NCBI GenBank assembly: GCA_951406725.2
Contig: OX597816.1
Span: forward strand, 57,970,001 to 58,034,000
DNA length: 64,000 bases
From: Octopus vulgaris
Lineage: Eukaryota
Direction: 5' to 3'
In this document: positions 15,643 through 57,351 of the stretch, piece by piece
Layout: each line of letters starts with the position of its first letter
Position numbering within the stretch: position 1 is the stretch's first letter
Translations under genes and position numbers: made by a program
Notes under the pieces: model-generated
Database searches by the model: none
Seen by the model: the letters and a program-made list of their open reading frames with translations, nothing else
Told to the model about the DNA's origin: nothing

Positions 15643-16520
15643 CCCCTGACAGGCTCCTGTGCCAGCAGCACCATGTGAATGTGGTCAATGCCAGAGTCCC
15701 CTGACTGGCTCCTGTGTCGGTAGCATGCATAAAGCACCATGCAAACGTGGTCAATGCCAGTGCCCCCTAATTGGCTCCCGTGCTGGTGACATAAAAAGCA
15801 CCATGTGAATGTAGTTGATGCCAGTGCCTCCTGTGCCGGTGGTATGTAAAAAGCACCTGTTACACTCTTGGAGTGGTTGGCATTAGGAAGGGCATCCAGC
15901 TGTAGAAACCATGCCAAATTAGATTGGAGCTTGGTGCAGCCTACTGGCTTGCGAGTCCTCAGTCAAACCTATTTCTTTACTACCCACAAGGGGCTAAACA
16001 TAGAGAGGACAAACAAGGACAGACAAATGGATTAAGTCGGTTATATCGACCCCAGTGCGTAACTGGTACTTAATTTATTGACTCCGAAAGGATGAAAGGC
16101 AAAGTCAACCTCGGCGGAATTTGAACTCAGAACGTAACGGAAGACGAAATATGGCTACGCATTTCGCCCGGCGTGCTAACGTTTCTACCATCTCACCGCC
16201 ATCCAACCCATGCCAGCAAGGAAAGCAGATGTTAAACAAACGATAATCAAGGATAAAATCTGTAGAGGATTTTATCAAGAAGCTAGCATGTAAAAAAACC
16301 ATTTAGGTAGAAATTAATACTACGTATTTCACTTTTAATACACAGTATCGTCATCATCATCATCATCATCGTTTAACGTCTGCTTTCCATGCTGGCATGG
16401 GTTGGACGGTTTGACTAAGGTGTGGAGAACCAGGAGGCTGCACCAGGCTCCAATCTTGTGCCTGGGAGGGTAACTTTCTAAGTGCAATCCCATGGTCAGT
16501 CATGACCAAAGGGGGTCTTA

Positions 16521-16554
<34 letters not shown>

Positions 16555-17116
16555 ATATTCAAAAACTAAAAATATTCATAAGATAAATAGTTATGTAGAA
16601 GCTTATAAATATCTATATGCAGTTACAAATAAATTTACATAGAGTACAAAAGGTATAGAAAACCAAGTGGAGAATGCATAGTTTTTTAACAGCTGTTTCT
16701 AGGAGTTTGGAATTATGTAATAGTTGTAATGTTCATAACTAGCAGATGGAGTGTTCAAAAAGTCGTGGACATGCAACCAGTTGATAGATGCATATAAATC
16801 GGCTTCCTTCATCAGGAGGGGAAGATTGGCAGATAGCAGTTCACATGGTGGTGTGAGAAATCCATGGTTTGAATGGGAGAAGAGGAAGAAGAGTAAAAGG
16901 CAGGAAGAAGGAGGATTCAGTTGGTCTAGAGAGTGGGCAGAAAAGGAAGAAGCGATAGGAAATACAAGGTGGGAGAGGTGAATAATCAAGGGATAGACTA
17001 GAAGTAAAAGTGGAGATGAAAAGTCTCCAAACACTGTGCTGATGGTGTTGATAACAAGACAAACTCTGTAGGAAATTGACATTGGACAAGAATAAAAAAA
17101 AAATTGAAATAATTAC

Positions 17117-17212
17117 CTTCAAATCAATAAGACGTGTCTTAACGAGAGTTGTATATTCAAAGTACACTTCAGAACATTGTGCAGGTACAAAAGGAGTTTT
17201 CATGAGGTGTGC
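17117..17212 (-). CDS. FANCA: FANCA exon (exon 16 equivalent), 96 nt
   Basis: cttgttgctcag|AHLMKTPFVPAQCSEVYFEYTTLVKTRLIDLK|gtaatt versus human [32 protein letters not shown]. Confidence 0.95.
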
Positions 17213-17277
17213 CTGAGCAACAAGAGTAAAAAAAATATATTAAAGAATAACTTTTTACAATGACATCAGTCTTTTGT

Positions 17278-17619
17278 CATTCATCATCCGCTTTCCATGC
17301 TGGCATGGGTTGGACGGTTTGACTGAGGGCTGGCAAGCCAGAAGGCTGCACCAGGCCCCCAGTCTGATCTGGCAGAGTTTCTACAGCTGGATGCCCTTCC
17401 TAATGCCAACCACTCCAAGAGTGTAGTGGGTGAAGGCTTTAATTATCATAGAGAGGTTCGCTAGTCCAAGCAGGGATTCAGGCCACACATTCACAAGAAG
17501 CTACTACAACATGATTAAGAAACAAGTTAGAAATACAGATGCAAGTAAGTTCCAAACTTGCAGTGTAACTTCCATATAATCTCCAGGCATAAATTAGAGT
17601 TACTTGCAGAGATGTATTT
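17278..17619 (-). pseudogene. Processed retrocopy of a partly spliced FANCA RNA (3' 18 nt of exon 5 + exon 6 + start of intron 6 + intronic RTE 3' tail)
   Basis: 17602-17619 matches 45207-45224 and is joined without an intron to 17537-17601 (= exon 6). 17432-17536 matches unique intron-6 sequence at ~40418-40524, followed by the RTE tail. Confidence 0.85.
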
Positions 17620-18324: not shown

Positions 18325-18435
18325 CTTCAGATGAATTGCAGATTCAAAGGGTACCAAGTCAGACAACAGTTTGATAAGAAAGGTAAAACTTTTCTGGGTG
18401 TTTGCAATTGATTTATTCGAACAACCAAATGTTAA
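18325..18435 (-). CDS. FANCA: FANCA exon (exon 15 equivalent), 111 nt
   Basis: ctttgttgcag|LTFGCSNKSIANTQKSFTFLIKLLSDLVPFESAIHLK|gtgagt versus human ASFGS...[24 protein letters not shown]. Confidence 0.95.
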
Positions 18436-39839: not shown

Positions 39840-40524
39840 ATGTGTACCTTTGCTTTAACAACATGTAACGGTTGTAAAAGTCCATCATTGACATACAAGT
39901 GCTGTTCTTTGTTCTTAGTCTTCTGTGAGAAACATGTCTGGCCAAAGGGAAATATTACTTTGCTTGGAAATCAGGTGAGGGTTAGTGGCAGGAAAGGCAT
40001 CTGAACAGAAAGACTTCAACAAATTGCTTCTGACCCATTATAAGCATAGAAACAAATGCTTTTAAAGTTATTCAAATAACTTAAAAAAAAAAAATTAATG
40101 TCTTTACAATCTCTTCAGATAGACATTTATCCAGGGTGCCACCCAGGGAGACTGAACCTTAGGCTACATGGTAGGGAGGCGAGCTTCTTAACCACACAGC
40201 CATACCTGCACCTATGTGGCAATTATAGGAATAATACTACAAGAGCTTTAAGAATTAGGTGAGGAGAAACCGAGAAGATGAATCATTCATCATCATCATC
40301 GTCGTCGACTTTTAACGTCTGCTTTCCATGCTGGCATGGGTCGGACTCCAGTCTTGATCTGGCAGAGTTTCTACAGCTGGATGCCCTTCCTAATACCAAC
40401 AACTGAGTGTAGTGGGTGAAGGCTTTAATTATCAGAGAGGTTTGCTAGTCCAAGCAGGGATTCAGGCCACAGATTCACAAGAAGCTACTACAACATGACT
40501 AAGAAACAAGTTAGAAATACTTAC

Positions 40525-40601: not shown

Positions 40602-41051
40602 CTATGAAAGAAAAATAGAGGATATAGATATAAATATACAGATACAACATCATCATCATCGGTTAATGTTTGCTTTCCATGCTGGCATAGGTTGAATAGT
40701 TTGACTAAGGACTGGCAAGCCAGGAGGCTGCACCAGGCTCCAATCTGATATGACAAGGTCTCAACAGCTGGATGCCCTTCCTAACACCAACTGCTTCAAG
40801 AGTTTAGTGGGTGTTTTTCACATGCCATCGGCACGGGTGCCAGTCTGACGACACTGGCATTGGCTACGTCTACAATTTCACAGTCACTACAACAAAAACT
40901 CAAAGAAAATGAATGTATGGTTTAACACTTCTTGCATGACACAGTAGTGCATAGGACGGTATCGGTCAACCAGTCCTGAACTGCAGAATATCACACAAAT
41001 TATACTAACCTTACATTCATTTTGAAGGAAGTGTGGAACCTCTGACCCCTT

Positions 41052-45206: not shown

Positions 45207-45296
45207 AGTTGCAGAGATGTATTTGTGGAAGAAGTCCATTTCAAATTGTTGCTCTTTCAGTGAGAGTATGACATCGATTATGACTTGTAAGGAAAC
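45207..45296 (-). CDS. FANCA: FANCA exon (exon 5 equivalent), 90 nt, phase 0->0
   Basis: gctgtttcag|VSLQVIIDVILSLKEQQFEMDFFHKYISAT|gtgagt. Its 3' end is found spliced to the next exon in the retrocopy at 17537-17619, which supports the junction independently. Confidence 0.88.
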
Positions 45297-49578: not shown

Positions 49579-51431
<1,853 letters not shown>

Positions 51432-52254
51432 GGGCATTCAGCTGCAGAAACGCTGCCAGATCAGACTGGAGCCTGGTGCAGCCTTCTGGCTTCCCAGATC
51501 TCCAGTCGAACCCTCCAACCCATGCTAGCATGGAGAACGGACGTTAAACGATGATGATACACACACATATATATACTCTTTACTCTTTTACTTGTTTCAG
51601 TCATTTGACTGCGGCCATGCTGGAGCACCGCCTTTAGTCGAGCAAATCGACCCCGGGACTTATTCTTTGTAAGCCCAGTACTTATTCTATCGGTCTCTTT
51701 TGCCGAACCGCTAAGTGACGGGGACGTAAACATACCAGCATCGGTTGTCAAGCAATACTAGGGGGACAAACACAGACACACAAACATATACACACACACT
51801 TATATATATATATATATATATATACATATATACGACAGGCTTCTTTCAGTTTCCGTCTACCAAATCCACTCACAAGGCATTGGTCTGCCCGGGGCTATAG
51901 CAGAAGACACTTAACCAAGATGCCACGCAGTGGGACTGAACCCGGAACCATGTGGTTGGTTAGCAAGCTACTTACCACACAGCCACTCCTGCGCCTATAT
52001 ATATATATACACACACATATATATACACATAGGCGCAGGAATGGCTGTGTGGTAAGTAGCTATAGGCGCAGGAGTGGCTGTGTGGTAAGTAGCTTGTTTG
52101 CCAACCACATGGTTCCAGGTTCAGTCCCACTGCGTGGCACCATGGACAAGTGTCTTCTACTATAGCCTCGGGCCAACCAAAGCCTTGTGAGTGGATTTGG
52201 TAGAAGGAAACTGAAAGAAGCTTGTCGTATATATATGTATATATATGTATATAT

Positions 52255-52293
<39 letters not shown>

Positions 52294-52622
52294 GTTTAAC
52301 GTCCGCTTTCCGCGCTAGCACGGGTTGGACGGTTTGACCGGGTCTGGGAAGCCAGGGGCCGCTCCAGGCTCCAGTCTGAATCTGGCAGAGTTTCTACGGC
52401 TGGATGCCCTTCCTAACGCCAACCACTCCGTGAGTGGATTGGGTGCTTTTTACGTGCCACCTGCACAGGGGCCGGAGGGTCCGGCATCGTCACGATCGGA
52501 TTCGAGCATTTTAACGTGTCAGCGGCACGGGGGCAACGAGGTCCGGGGTACTTTGGGGATTGGGGTATTTTGGGGATCCAGGGTACTTTGGGGATCCGGG
52601 GTACTTTGGGGATCCGGGGTAC

Positions 52623-55600
52623 TTAGAATGGGTAGGGGGTACTTAGAATGGGTAGGGGGTATGTGGAATTGCTGCAGAAAGCAGCCCGGGTCTTTGTAGT
52701 CACAGCATATCTCCAGAGATCTCGGTCCTTCGCCATTGCCTCAGTGAGGCCCAATGCTCTGAGGTCATGCTTGACCACCTCATCCCATGTCTTCCTGGGT
52801 CTACCTCTCCCCCTGATACCTTCAACTGTTTGGGAGTGGCACTTCTTCACACATCTCTCTTCATCCATCCGCAGCACATGACCATACCATCGCAAGCGTC
52901 GCTCTTGCACACCACATCTGACGCTTCTTATATCCAGCATTTCTCTCAGGATACTTACACTCTGTTTTGCGTGCACACTGACACTACACATCCAGCGGAT
53001 CATGCTAGCTTCATTTCTTTCAAGTCTACGCATGTCTTCTGCAGTCACAGCCCATGTTTCATTACCGTGAAGCATGGCAGTTCGCACACATGCATCATAT
53101 AATCTACCTTTTGCTCTGAGGGAGAGGCCTTTTGTTGCCAGTAGGGGTAGGAGCTTTCTGAACTTTGCCCAGGCTATTCGTATTCTAGTGGTGATACTCT
53201 CTGTGCATCCACCTCCGCTACTAACTTGGTCTCCCAGGTAGCGGAAACTATCAACTACTTCTAGTTTCTCTCCCTGGAGTGTGATGGAATCTGTTTTCTG
53301 AGTGTCTGTTGTGTCTATTGTCCCTGTGCATCTGCCGCACATGAAAGCTATCTTATCTGTTAATTTCCCTTTAATGTTGCTGCACCTCTTATGTGTCCAT
53401 AACTTACATTGGGTGCATCTTATGGAGTTTCTACCTGTACCTTTCCTACAGGTTGAGCAGGGCCACCTACCCGAGGGGATGTGTGTTGAGTACCTCTTGC
53501 TGCTTACTAATACTTTGGTCTTTGCTACATTTATTCTAAGGCCCTTTGATTCCAACCCTTGCTTCCATACCCGAAATTTCTCTTCTAGTTCCGGTAGTGA
53601 TTCTGCTATGAGAGCTAGGTCATCGGCATAGAGGAGCTCCCAGGGGCATCCCGTTTTGAATTCCTCTGTTATTGCTTGAAGTACTATGATGAACAAAAGG
53701 GGACTGAGGGCTGAGCCCTGGTGCACACCTACTTCTACTCGGAATTCTTCACTATATTCGTTGCCAATCCTAACCTTGCTAACAGCCTCTCTGTATAGAG
53801 CCTGTACAGCCCTTATTAGCCATTCTTCAATCTCCAGTTTCCGCATCGACCACCAGATAAGGGAACGGGGAACCCTGTCAAAGGCTTTCTCCAAGTCTAC
53901 AAAAGCTATGTAGAGGGGTTTATCTTTAGCTAGGTACTTCTCCTGCAGTTGTCGGACCAGGAATATAGCATCAGTGGTGCTTCTACCTGGTACAAAACCG
54001 AACTGCATTTCATCTAAACAAATTCTCTCCCTAATGAGATTGGTTATGACCTTCTCTGAGACCTTCATCACCTGGTCCAACAGTTTGATATCTCTGTAGT
54101 TATTTCTATCTAGAGCATCACCCTTACCCTTGTAGCAGTTGACTATGGTACTGCTGCACCAGTCATTGGGTATGGCTCCATTGTGAACTACCTGGTTTAC
54201 AATGCGGGTGACTATGGCATGGCCCACATAGCCAGCTGTTTTAAGCATCTCAGCAGTGATTCCTGATAGGCCAGGGGCTTTGCCTGGTTTCATATCCTTA
54301 ATTGCCTTATCTACAAGGGAGCTGTCTATTCGGGTAGCTGGTCCCTCTACTGGGTCAACATTTGGCAGGCTCTCCTCCTCCCATTCATTCTCCTCATTTA
54401 GCAGTCTTTCATAATGGCTTCTCCAAGCCTCTTTCTTTTCACTAGTAGTAAAAGCAAGTGCCCCATCATCCATGCGGACACATTTCTCTCCTATAACATC
54501 GCTATTTTCTCTGACACACTGTCTGGCAATCCGAAATACTTCAGCTCTTTGATCCTCGCGACGCTGGACATTGGCAAACTTCTTCTTTTCTGCTACATCT
54601 TTGGCAATGTATACCTGCCGCCCAGCCTCCCTTTTGGCTATCTGGTACAGTTCCCTGCTGCCCCCCTCCTTCCAGGCTTTCCAGGCCCGTCTCTTTTCAC
54701 AGATGGCTTTATCTACTGCACTATTCCACCACCACGTAATTCTAGGTCTGGAAGGGACTTTGCACCATCCACAAACTTGGTCTGTGGCACTCAACAAGCT
54801 GTCCCGTAGGAATTCCCAGCTACCTTCTATGTCTGACATCTGAAGCTCCTCTTCCCTCTCATCAAATTTCTTGATGAGTATGTCCCTAAATTTCTGACCA
54901 TGCGAAGGGTTCTTTAGCCTCCAAATCCTTCTTTTCTGGATTGGTTTGTTTCTTGGAGTCCTTCTGGCCTCAAGCTTAAAGTCACTGATGATTAGTCTAT
55001 GCTGAGGGATACATTCTTCACCCGGGAGGGTCTTTGTATTCAAGAGCAACCCTGCATCCCGTTGTCTGGTGAGGATGAAGTCTATTTGGCTAGCGGAGTC
55101 TCCTGACTGATAAGTTATAAGGTGGCAGACTGGCTTCTTGAAGTTAGTGTTGCAGATTGAAAGGTTACATGCATCACAGAATTCCAGTAGTCTAGTTCCC
55201 TCATCGTTTCTGGTGCCAATACCATATCCACCATGTACCCCAGTGAAGATACCCGATTCCCGCCCAACATGCCCGTTAAAATCTCCACCTACAAAGATGA
55301 GGTCCTTGTTACTAGTCTTTGAAGTAGCCTGCAGAAGGGTATCATAAAAGTTGTCCTTCTGATCATTTGGTAGTCCCGCTTGTGGGGCATAGGCTGAGAT
55401 AATCATAGCTGTGCCACTCTGTAGGACCAACCTGAGCTTAAGCACTCTATCACAAACCCTGACAACCTCTATGACCTTATCCACCCATTCCTCCGCAAGG
55501 AGAATGCCTACACCCCCTACACCTTCCGCGTTACCTTGCCAGTAGAGTTTGTATCTAAGTGCCTTGCCCGTGAGGACCCTAGCCGAAGCATCTCTCCATC

Positions 55601-55859
55601 TTACCTCTTGTATGCAGCATACATCAACCTGTCTTCTCTCTAGCATCTCTACAATCTCACTAGACTTGCCTGTCAATGTACCAACATTGATAGTGCCAAC
55701 TCTGAAAACTGGGAAGGAGATGTGGGGGGGACAGGGGGGATTCGGCGCCTGAGAAGAGGAGGGTTGTAGTGGTGGTGATAGTTTTCGTGGTATTTTTCTT
55801 TTGATCTCTCTTCCAACCTGACCACGCCGTGGGCAGGAGCTGGTGTTAGCAGTGGACAT
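52623..55859 (-). CDS. RTE ORF: APE endonuclease + reverse transcriptase with inserted PHD-type zinc finger, 1078 aa
   Basis: APE motifs GTINVGTL, CIQEVRW, GGDFNGHVG, SQIDFIL. RT motifs DLEKAFD, GVHQGSALSPLLF, YADD, FRYLG. RTE-type C-terminus RRLRWYGHV...RGRGRPRKTW. Confidence 0.95.
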   Translation of the reverse strand: MSTANTSSCPRRGQVGREIKRKIPRKLSPPLQPSSSQAPNPPCPPHISFPVFRVGTINVGTLTGKSSEIVEMLERRQVDVCCIQEVRWRDASARVLTGKALRYKLYWQGNAEGVGGVGILLAEEWVDKVIEVVRVCDRVLKLRLVLQSGTAMIISAYAPQAGLPNDQKDNFYDTLLQATSKTSNKDLIFVGGDFNGHVGRESGIFTGVHGGYGIGTRNDEGTRLLEFCDACNLSICNTNFKKPVCHLITYQSGDSASQIDFILTRQRDAGLLLNTKTLPGEECIPQHRLIISDFKLEARRTPRNKPIQKRRIWRLKNPSHGQKFRDILIKKFDEREEELQMSDIEGSWEFLRDSLLSATDQVCGWCKVPSRPRITWWWNSAVDKAICEKRRAWKAWKEGGSRELYQIAKREAGRQVYIAKDVAEKKKFANVQRREDQRAEVFRIARQCVRENSDVIGEKCVRMDDGALAFTTSEKKEAWRSHYERLLNEENEWEEESLPNVDPVEGPATRIDSSLVDKAIKDMKPGKAPGLSGITAEMLKTAGYVGHAIVTRIVNQVVHNGAIPNDWCSSTIVNCYKGKGDALDRNNYRDIKLLDQVMKVSEKVITNLIRERICLDEMQFGFVPGRSTTDAIFLVRQLQEKYLAKDKPLYIAFVDLEKAFDRVPRSLIWWSMRKLEIEEWLIRAVQALYREAVSKVRIGNEYSEEFRVEVGVHQGSALSPLLFIIVLQAITEEFKTGCPWELLYADDLALIAESLPELEEKFRVWKQGLESKGLRINVAKTKVLVSSKRYSTHIPSGRWPCSTCRKGTGRNSIRCTQCKLWTHKRCSNIKGKLTDKIAFMCGRCTGTIDTTDTQKTDSITLQGEKLEVVDSFRYLGDQVSSGGGCTESITTRIRIAWAKFRKLLPLLATKGLSLRAKGRLYDACVRTAMLHGNETWAVTAEDMRRLERNEASMIRWMCSVSVHAKQSVSILREMLDIRSVRCGVQERRLRWYGHVLRMDEERCVKKCHSQTVEGIRGRGRPRKTWDEVVKHDLRALGLTEAMAKDRDLWRYAVTTKTRAAFCSNSTYPLPILSTPYPF

Positions 55860-56410
55860 TTGTTATCGTCTCTGAGTAACGTAATTAGGTAGAGGAAAGA
55901 AATACAGATATTCTAGAGTTGAGTTGGGGAGGTCCAGTTGAGGCGGGTAATATAGGGGAGCAACCAGTGGGGAAGGTTGGGGTAAGGAGGAACGATGGCA
56001 GGAAGGGTTGGTGTAGGTTCCTAAGAAGATTACGAGGCGGGAGGGTACTAAAGGGGATGGTCGGATTGACGAGGCGGGAGGGTACTAAAAGGGGATGGTC
56101 GGATTGAGGCAGTGTCAGGAGGAAGCGTAAGATCGGTGGGCAGTTGATGAGCTATGGCGCTAGCAGCTTGTCTTAAGCATATGAGGAGAAGTGGTAGTGG
56201 GAGGAGGAGGAGGGAGTAGGGCGTACCCAGTGTAGATGAGTAAGGTGTATCCGGTGTAGATGGAGAGAACGGGGTATACTGGTATTGGTGGTGGGGGGGG
56301 TGAGAACAGTGTTCAACGGTATTGGTGGTGGGGGTGAGAACAGTGTTCAACGGTATTGGTGGTGGGGGGTGGGGTGGTGGGGGTGGGGGTGGGGGTGGGG
56401 GGGGGCGCAC

Positions 56411-57349
56411 CGCCAATGACTGAAAGATGGGAAAAAGATGGGATTACGGCTTGAGGCAGCCTGCGGTTAAATATTGTAGAGAGAGAGATAGGAAGATAAA
56501 TCAAGTTATGGCGAAGGCTTGAAAGTATCCTAAAAAAGGTTAAATTTTCGTAACAGTGTATGAATAAACGTATTAACAACGAATAAAAAAATATAGTAAG
56601 ATAAATTTTTTAAGAACTTGCTGCGGTCATCGAGCGGGAGTTGAAATTGAAGAAGAAAGTAGTTGAACTGGGAATTTAAATTGCAGAATCGTAATAGTAA
56701 TAGTAATGGCGGTTTTCAAGTTTTAGCATATGAAGAAGAAGAGGAGGAAAAAGAAGACCGCCAATGACTGAAAGATGGGAAAAAGATGGGATTACGGCTT
56801 GAGGCAGCCTGCGGTTAAATATTGTAGAGAGAGAGATAGGAAGATAAATCAAGTTATGGCGAAGGCTTGAAAGTATCCTAAAAAGGTTAAATTTTCGTAA
56901 CAGTGTATGAATAAACGTATTAACAACGAATAAAAAAAATATAGTAAGATAAATTTTTTAAGAACTTGCTGCGGTCATCGAGCGGGAGTTGAAATTGAAG
57001 AAGAAAGTAGTTGAACTGGGAATTTAAATTGCAGAATCGTAATAGTAATAGTAATGGCGGTTTTCAAGTTTTAGCATATGAAGAAGAAGAGGAGGAAAAA
57101 GAAGACCGCCAATGACTGAAAGATGGGAAAAAGATGGGATTACGGCTTGAGGCAGCCTGCGGTTAAATATTGTAGAGAGAGAGATAGGAAGATAAATCAA
57201 GTTATGGCGAAGGCTTGAAAGTATCCTAAAAAAGGTTAAATTTTCGTAACAGTGTATGAATAAACGTATTAACAACGAATAAAAAAATATAGTAAGATAA
57301 ATTTTTTAAGAACTTGCTGCGGTCATCGAGCGGGAGTTGAAATTGAAGA
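56411..57349 (-). repeat. ~2.7 tandem copies of a 348-bp monomer forming the RTE 5' end
   Basis: cgccaatgactgaaagatggg recurs at 56411, 56759 and 57107; copies are near-identical. Confidence 0.92.
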
Positions 57350-57351
57350 TC

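Follow-up and report, generated by a model that had tools for sequence, protein, structure and literature searches.

A probable local copy of half-spliced FANCA RNA within an intron of the octopus FANCA gene

An intron of the Octopus vulgaris FANCA gene contains a fragment, named C1, in which the end of one FANCA exon is joined precisely to the next exon, followed by the retained start of the next intron and by the 3' tail of a LINE. C1 occupies positions 17277-17619 (minus strand) of the window, which is the whole 64,000-nt stretch of DNA analysed, and lies on the strand of its host gene, 23 kb downstream of its source. On balance, C1 is best regarded as a DNA copy of half-spliced FANCA RNA, likely written by the reverse transcriptase (RT) of the tail's LINE family, with nascent RNA probably captured in the nucleus at its own locus and entry gained through an intronic tail. 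Retrocopies are expected to arise from finished mRNA and to land anywhere; the surprise here is the locality together with the half-spliced state, seen at two genes, about 25 kb downstream and on the gene's own strand.

Anatomy of the copy and its host gene

The host gene is identified as FANCA by a protein search, in which the peptide of the captured exon matches two octopus proteins, a FANCA-like protein of O. bimaculoides and one labelled O. vulgaris. The FANCA proteins P0001 and P0002, each with three FANCA Pfam domains (Fanconi_A_N, FANCA_helical and FANCA_arcN), map over contig C3:57.89-58.05 Mb. Throughout, C1 and C2 are the names of two FANCA copies, and coordinates beginning with C1:, C2: or C3: refer to genome contigs. 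The numbering used in the initial annotation, exons 5 and 6 and intron 15, is presumably that of human FANCA and does not carry over to the P0002 model, in which the captured exons rank 4th and 5th and the intron hosting C1 (17213-18324, 1.1 kb) about 12th; exon 5 and exon 6 are kept here as names. The source, the host intron and C1 comprise the following features in window coordinates.

45207-45296, minus strand: source exon 5, bounded by AG and GT
40642-40868, minus strand: second sense tail, 41 nt upstream of source exon 6, equivalent to the 5' part of C2
40525-40601, minus strand: source exon 6
40419-40524, minus strand: unique start of the source intron
40283-40418, minus strand: sense tail within the source intron, bearing the ATCAAG subfamily mark and an internal deletion that is nearly private
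18325-18435, minus strand: FANCA exon upstream of the host intron
17602-17619, minus strand: C1, last 18 nt of exon 5, one mismatch, 5'-truncated
17537-17601, minus strand: C1, copy of exon 6 fused to the exon 5 end at the splice site, 12 nt deleted
17433-17536, minus strand: C1, 104 nt from the unique beginning of the next intron, retained, its donor lost via a 4-nt deletion
17277-17432, minus strand: C1, LINE 3' tail with the terminus GATGATGAATGA, including 42 nt absent from the source
17117-17212, minus strand: FANCA exon downstream of the host intron

The fusion of exon 5 to exon 6 with loss of the 4.6-kb intron, as first described, is borne out at the level of single nucleotides. The best other match in the window for the 18-mer at 17602-17619 is 45207-45224, with one mismatch, and it ends exactly at the GTGAGT donor of exon 5; the next best match has four mismatches, and the probability of a chance match at this pre-specified site is 1.8e-9. 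The intervening intron of 4605 nt, bounded by GT and AG, is precisely absent from C1. Alignment of C1 to a spliced model composed of exon, exon, intron and tail scores 441.5, compared with 410.5 for the unspliced genomic model, and yields 282 identical columns among the 295 aligned, with 13 substitutions and 7 gaps. The fused sequence reads FHKYISAT followed by NSDLCLEIIWKLH, in frame and in agreement with P0001 and P0002. Additionally, C1 preserves the exact intron-tail junction of the source and stops at the (GAT)n end of the tail, its 3' end lying 64 nt from the next FANCA acceptor.

Several details of the original description require adjustment. The segment is located as given, except that the 3' end shared with the source (40283) falls at 17277 and not at 17278. 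The extra tail sequence is indeed present in C1 and absent from the source, with a net length of 42 nt rather than about 45 nt. The exon 6 donor is lost, through the 4-nt deletion rather than the change first reported, and exon 6 itself carries the additional 12-nt deletion.

Three artefacts named in the initial annotation are rejected. A chance 18-mer is incompatible with a one-mismatch match placed exactly at the true donor. A common dispersed repeat is rejected since the unique part of C1 has three genome-wide matches (C1 itself, the source and C2), compared with 2063 candidates for a common-repeat control in the same search. An assembly chimera is rejected since contigs from the related organisms B (17050-17314) and C (17050-17315) cross the 3' junction of C1, running from the flank into the tail. 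Furthermore, an organism B contig over 17410-17536 carries two C1-specific alleles, lacking both source alleles at 17488 and 17515, and is therefore read as the C1 orthologue. The alignment of this contig ends at the donor with 9 letters remaining, which suggests, at the level of sequence comparison, that the donor deletion in C1 is recent.

The motif TTACAG lies 2 nt before C1 (17622-17627, minus strand), and the single mismatch of the exon 5 stub creates GTAACT (17603-17598, minus strand). Speculatively, C1 with its original donor could have acted as a frameshifting cryptic exon, and loss of the donor may have been favoured. In its present form C1 appears to be a dead fragment that has decayed since copying and looks functionless.

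Further copies and their locality

Two other copies bear on the origin of C1, one from FANCA and one from CDC5L.

Contig C3:57,597,345-57,597,835, plus strand: C2, second copy of exon 6, unspliced, outside the window, 413 kb from the source
Contig C2:36.7315-36.7321 Mb, source strand: half-spliced CDC5L copy, 25 kb downstream of its source

C2 runs from the upstream tail through the acceptor, exon 6 and the beginning of the intron into 48 nt of the following tail, at 92.5% identity. On its 5' side, a passage within tail homology leads over into the end of the ORF of another LINE copy; on its 3' side it adjoins a different repeat, and C2-like contigs are present in organisms B and C. Being unspliced and on the opposite strand, C2 may be a DNA-level event. 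Over 167 shared unique sites, five substitutions are found in C1 only, two in the source only and none in C2 only, counts that agree with an older C1. Extra copies were found for exon 6 only among 36 matches of a strict protein search, a result that is hence a floor.

The CDC5L copy shows a closely parallel arrangement, running from a 10-nt stub of the previous exon through the exon, about 195 nt of retained intron and a 3' piece of U6 to a tail of the same family. The stub is the sole match of at least 7 nt before any of the 2576 GT dinucleotides in 43 kb, and the U6 piece gives an Rfam E value of 9e-6, below the gathering score. The CDC5L source is the only other genome-wide match and has no tail at the corresponding point; the tail family can therefore join local half-spliced RNA by switching or ligation.

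All three copies from the two genes are local, at distances of 23 kb (C1), 413 kb (C2) and 25 kb (CDC5L copy), with none found elsewhere in genome-wide searches. By length, the chance of such locality is 1.6e-5 for C1, 2.9e-4 for C2 and 1.8e-5 for the CDC5L copy; C1 and the CDC5L copy came to notice through source and copy falling within one window, and C2 was found free of this bias. Locality by chance would require, by estimate, millions of dispersed events, and none was found for either source. The exclusively local placement of these copies points to nascent RNA captured at its locus. The RNA origin and local reinsertion initially proposed for C1 are supported by the precise spliced junction and the 23-kb distance from the source.

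A splice-junction scan over 1.664 Mb, about 0.6 Mb of it tail-rich, returned six raw matches from 2406 anchor tests, with C1 as the one convincing case. The other five were judged unconvincing from their junctions, two arising from one local inverted repeat and three being weak 15-mers. A local inverted repeat is located at 49579-50201 (185 nt, 98% identity, internal 353-nt offset). A shared-flank screen of 248 tail elements produced, besides C1 and C2, 44 other 5'-side rows, from which two pairs were inspected: one is explained by a common SINE that entered both tails at an identical position, and the other is a 230-nt piece comprising a microsatellite and a tail start, found at contig C3:57,563,731 and 57,566,305 (minus strand), 2.6 kb apart. 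Five low-copy pairs from the FANCA region resembled other repeats when inspected by eye. A duplicated host flank was present at none of the four other U6 3'-end loci tested. Exact matches to the U6 3' end number 210 genome-wide, many of the 30 viewed being joined directly to SINE-like repeats, and seven U6 copies form a tandem array with a spacing of about 1.1-1.4 kb at contig C1:139.42-139.43 Mb. Such local copies exist but look rare. The proposal that RTE tails serve as portable tags in a common process is not sustained, given one convincing case in 1.66 Mb and a CDC5L source that has no tail at the relevant point.

The LINE tail and its LINE family

The tail family of C1 is represented in a FANCA intron by an intact element.

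52623-55862, minus strand: 1079-aa LINE ORF with endonuclease and RT (plus PHD), of the same tail family, in a FANCA intron

The single ORF with endonuclease and RT fits an RTE, a label that we take from this architecture. Over 1.2 kb the element matches 39 other copies at 99-100% identity, these together with itself making up all 40 scored candidates, which indicates that the family has recently been active and that this copy postdates C1. As the cis source of a read-through transcript the element is rejected, since it is younger than C1 and its tail type differs. The whole element is a very young LINE spanning 52239-57350 (minus strand) in sense orientation in the FANCA intron; its 5' end carries 348-bp tandem monomers, and (TA)n flanks it on either side. 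Active RTE families have been reported in O. vulgaris (PMC13282606).

Tail copies form a sharp domain at contig C3:57.5-58.1 Mb, with 22-66 per 100 kb compared with 0-12 outside it (57.17-58.83 Mb); in and near FANCA the density reaches 66 per 100 kb, whereas bins beyond the domain contain 0-12. The captured exon 6 ranks second among 35 FANCA exon matches for closeness to a downstream sense tail end. The role initially assigned to the tail gains support from this rank, from the young LINE family, and from the (GAT)n end and exact source intron-tail junction of C1.

No target-site duplication (TSD) was detected at C1, where the best candidate, 9 nt with a mismatch, is at control level. Truncated tails in this region likewise show no TSD above control (38 of 138 versus 27% at >=9 nt), so its absence at C1 says little. 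In addition, C1 carries no 3' poly(A) and terminates in GATGATGAATGA. For RTE-related SINEs, PMC6007223 describes a TSD whose initial T lies about 10 nt beyond a run of T. The same common SINE occurs at the same position, after CAGTCAAAC, in two tail copies, at 15969-16199 (plus strand) and at contig C3:57,954,976-57,955,201, which reflects either a shared insertion preference or a composite element.

Comparison of tails places C1 closest to its source: among 118 tails compared, that of C1 is the nearest to the source (4 mismatches in 96 positions, the next having 7, median 12.5%), and both end in GATGAATGA, which is seen in 2 of 78 other tails. No private allele shared by C1 and the source was found inside the tail, and two tail-start changes common to the source and C2 are absent from C1. 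In 4637 genomic copies the source mark CTCTGCCAGATCAAG, that of the ATCAAG subfamily, precedes CATCTGGTT; in 33 it precedes the CTTCTGGCT of C1, and the type of C1 itself, which lacks the extra A, occurs in 246. The extra 42 nt of C1 would thus fit a subfamily other than that of the source mark (33 versus 4637), which suggests a template switch, an argument softened by the fact that only 373 of 4707 copies of the source's subfamily carry the source's 3' allele. The internal deletion of the source tail is nearly private, with three genomic matches including the source, and is rejected as a subfamily trait on this count. No contig bridging the deletion junction was listed for any of four organisms, three of which also lack the source flank, so that this absence carries no weight for dating the deletion; in organism D the 3' end of the source tail is present. 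As a matter of judgement, priming on the intron's own tail is placed slightly above even, and a switch from another tail RNA slightly below. Tails that combine the ATCAAG mark with the middle segment of another subfamily number 33 (about 0.7%), a combination that suggests, from sequence, tail-to-tail switching or conversion.

Mechanism, rival explanations and related systems

The template of C1 was an RNA with one intron removed and the next retained, and its copy, which ends at the (GAT)n of the tail, is cut 18 nt into the upstream exon. Such RNA would still have been tethered to the gene with the polymerase already downstream, so that the cDNA would have been inserted downstream and on the same strand. 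The RT may have primed on the intron's own tail, or it may have begun on another tail-bearing RNA and then switched through tail homology; termination of the transcript at the tail would be unnecessary when nascent RNA is captured. Stringent tail recognition is established for several LINEs (PMC3747384), and pairing between tail and target has been proposed for RTEs (PMC6007223).

The main rival to nascent-RNA capture, though itself improbable, is a double-strand break in the host intron, possibly within a pre-existing tail, into which a host polymerase or an RT acting independently of endonuclease copied neighbouring FANCA RNA as cDNA, as in a class 2 templated insertion. Such a patch accounts for the locality and for the lack of both duplication and poly(A) at C1; a pre-existing target tail would explain the subfamily mismatch, and class 2 insertions can derive from spliced RNA (PMC5110952). 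An end at (GAT)n is nevertheless not predicted unless the tail pre-existed, and the CDC5L copy is a three-RNA chain, suggesting a LINE RT. Weak evidence against the patch also comes from organism E, in which the flank contig ends at 17257 with 22 unlike letters and none of the pieces listed joins the flank to a tail there.

Ranked below this is the scheme of the initial annotation, which we consider rather unlikely: FANCA transcripts terminated at the intronic tail, a stringent RTE enzyme treated the resulting short RNA like a SINE and reinserted it, and the source later lost 42 nt. The (GAT)n end, the source's own end and junction, the nearest-tail relationship and the second rank of exon 6 among 35 for tail proximity all agree with this sequence of events; the two tail-start changes shared by the source and C2 and absent from C1 fit an older C1, and RAP1GDS1-L1PA2 offers a precedent (PMC11838501). 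However, a free finished RNA should insert anywhere, yet three of three copies are local, a placement that the scheme does not explain. It also needs one A to have been gained by the source or lost by C1 exactly at the subfamily-diagnostic site (4637, 33 and 246 copies). DNA-level duplication with a chance precise intron deletion, or an assembly chimera, is highly improbable and largely refuted. C2 demonstrates that unspliced duplication of the region is possible, but for C1 the exact GT..AG removal of 4605 nt and truncation of both ends would be required, and 13 substitutions and 7 gaps separate C1 from the source; against a chimera stand the 3' junction in organisms B and C and the organism B contig with two C1-specific alleles.

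Among known systems, the closest resemblance is to LINE 5' transduction from a host promoter, exemplified by RAP1GDS1-L1PA2 and 17 mRNA/LINE-1 chimeras (PMC11838501). In RAP1GDS1-L1PA2, spliced host exons located 5' of sense intronic LINE sequence were retroposed together with it (PMC11838501), and in C1, too, exons and intron of the host precede a sense element, with the source junction kept. As described in PMC11838501, that type involves a near-full L1 in cis, usually splice-joined to the exon, with TSD and poly(A), and insertion on other chromosomes; C1 instead has a non-coding tail of 136-156 nt, a retained intron, no TSD and an insertion in the same gene. SINEs with RTE tails (PMC6007223, PMC3747384) and snoRTEs (PMC4233971) are also host RNAs with a LINE 3' tail copied by the enzyme of that LINE; as characterised in these sources they are Pol III- or snoRNA-headed and form amplifying families. 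C1 shares with them a tail held in common with an autonomous LINE, but it is a single local fragment of Pol II pre-mRNA with three matches and no family amplification. Compared with a classical L1-type processed pseudogene, C1 shows precise intron removal and lacks poly(A) and TSD. Collectively, C1 works like a 5' transduction and is neither a classical processed pseudogene nor an amplified SINE-like family.

Other systems share individual aspects. Two-RNA template-switch insertions by L1 ORF2p (PMC11702581) and U6/LINE chimeras (PMC11838501) also link RNAs in the same orientation within one insertion, whereas the accessible text of these sources reports neither nascent target-gene RNA nor a drive by tail homology. 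Class 2 templated insertions (PMC5110952) and RNA-templated break repair (PMC12065846) similarly leave RNA-derived patches free of TSD and poly(A), although the donors of class 2 insertions described in PMC5110952 are distant and a LINE-tail terminus is unexpected. Nuclear colocalisation of retrocopies with their parents also biases insertion towards the parent's neighbourhood (PMC10733166); the effect described there is a weak interchromosomal Hi-C bias, in contrast to the same-strand distance of <25 kb at C1. Searches of the open-licence literature, exclusive of supplements, returned no report of a partly spliced retrocopy placed in its own gene via an RTE tail, and the 17-chimera table of PMC11838501 could hold a local case.

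As a broader and still tentative proposal, an octopus RTE-type RT may act at sites of transcription, where it would capture half-spliced nascent RNA, dock or switch at intronic tails, and write the RNA back into the same transcription unit some tens of kilobases further downstream, forming a recurrent cis route of exon duplication that also fossilises the order of splicing. Should this hold generally, nascent RNA at its own locus can serve as a template for LINE reverse transcription; exons could then be duplicated locally even where the main LINEs of a genome are thought to depend on a tail of their own, and the cDNA that is called upon to explain intron loss would have a testable origin.
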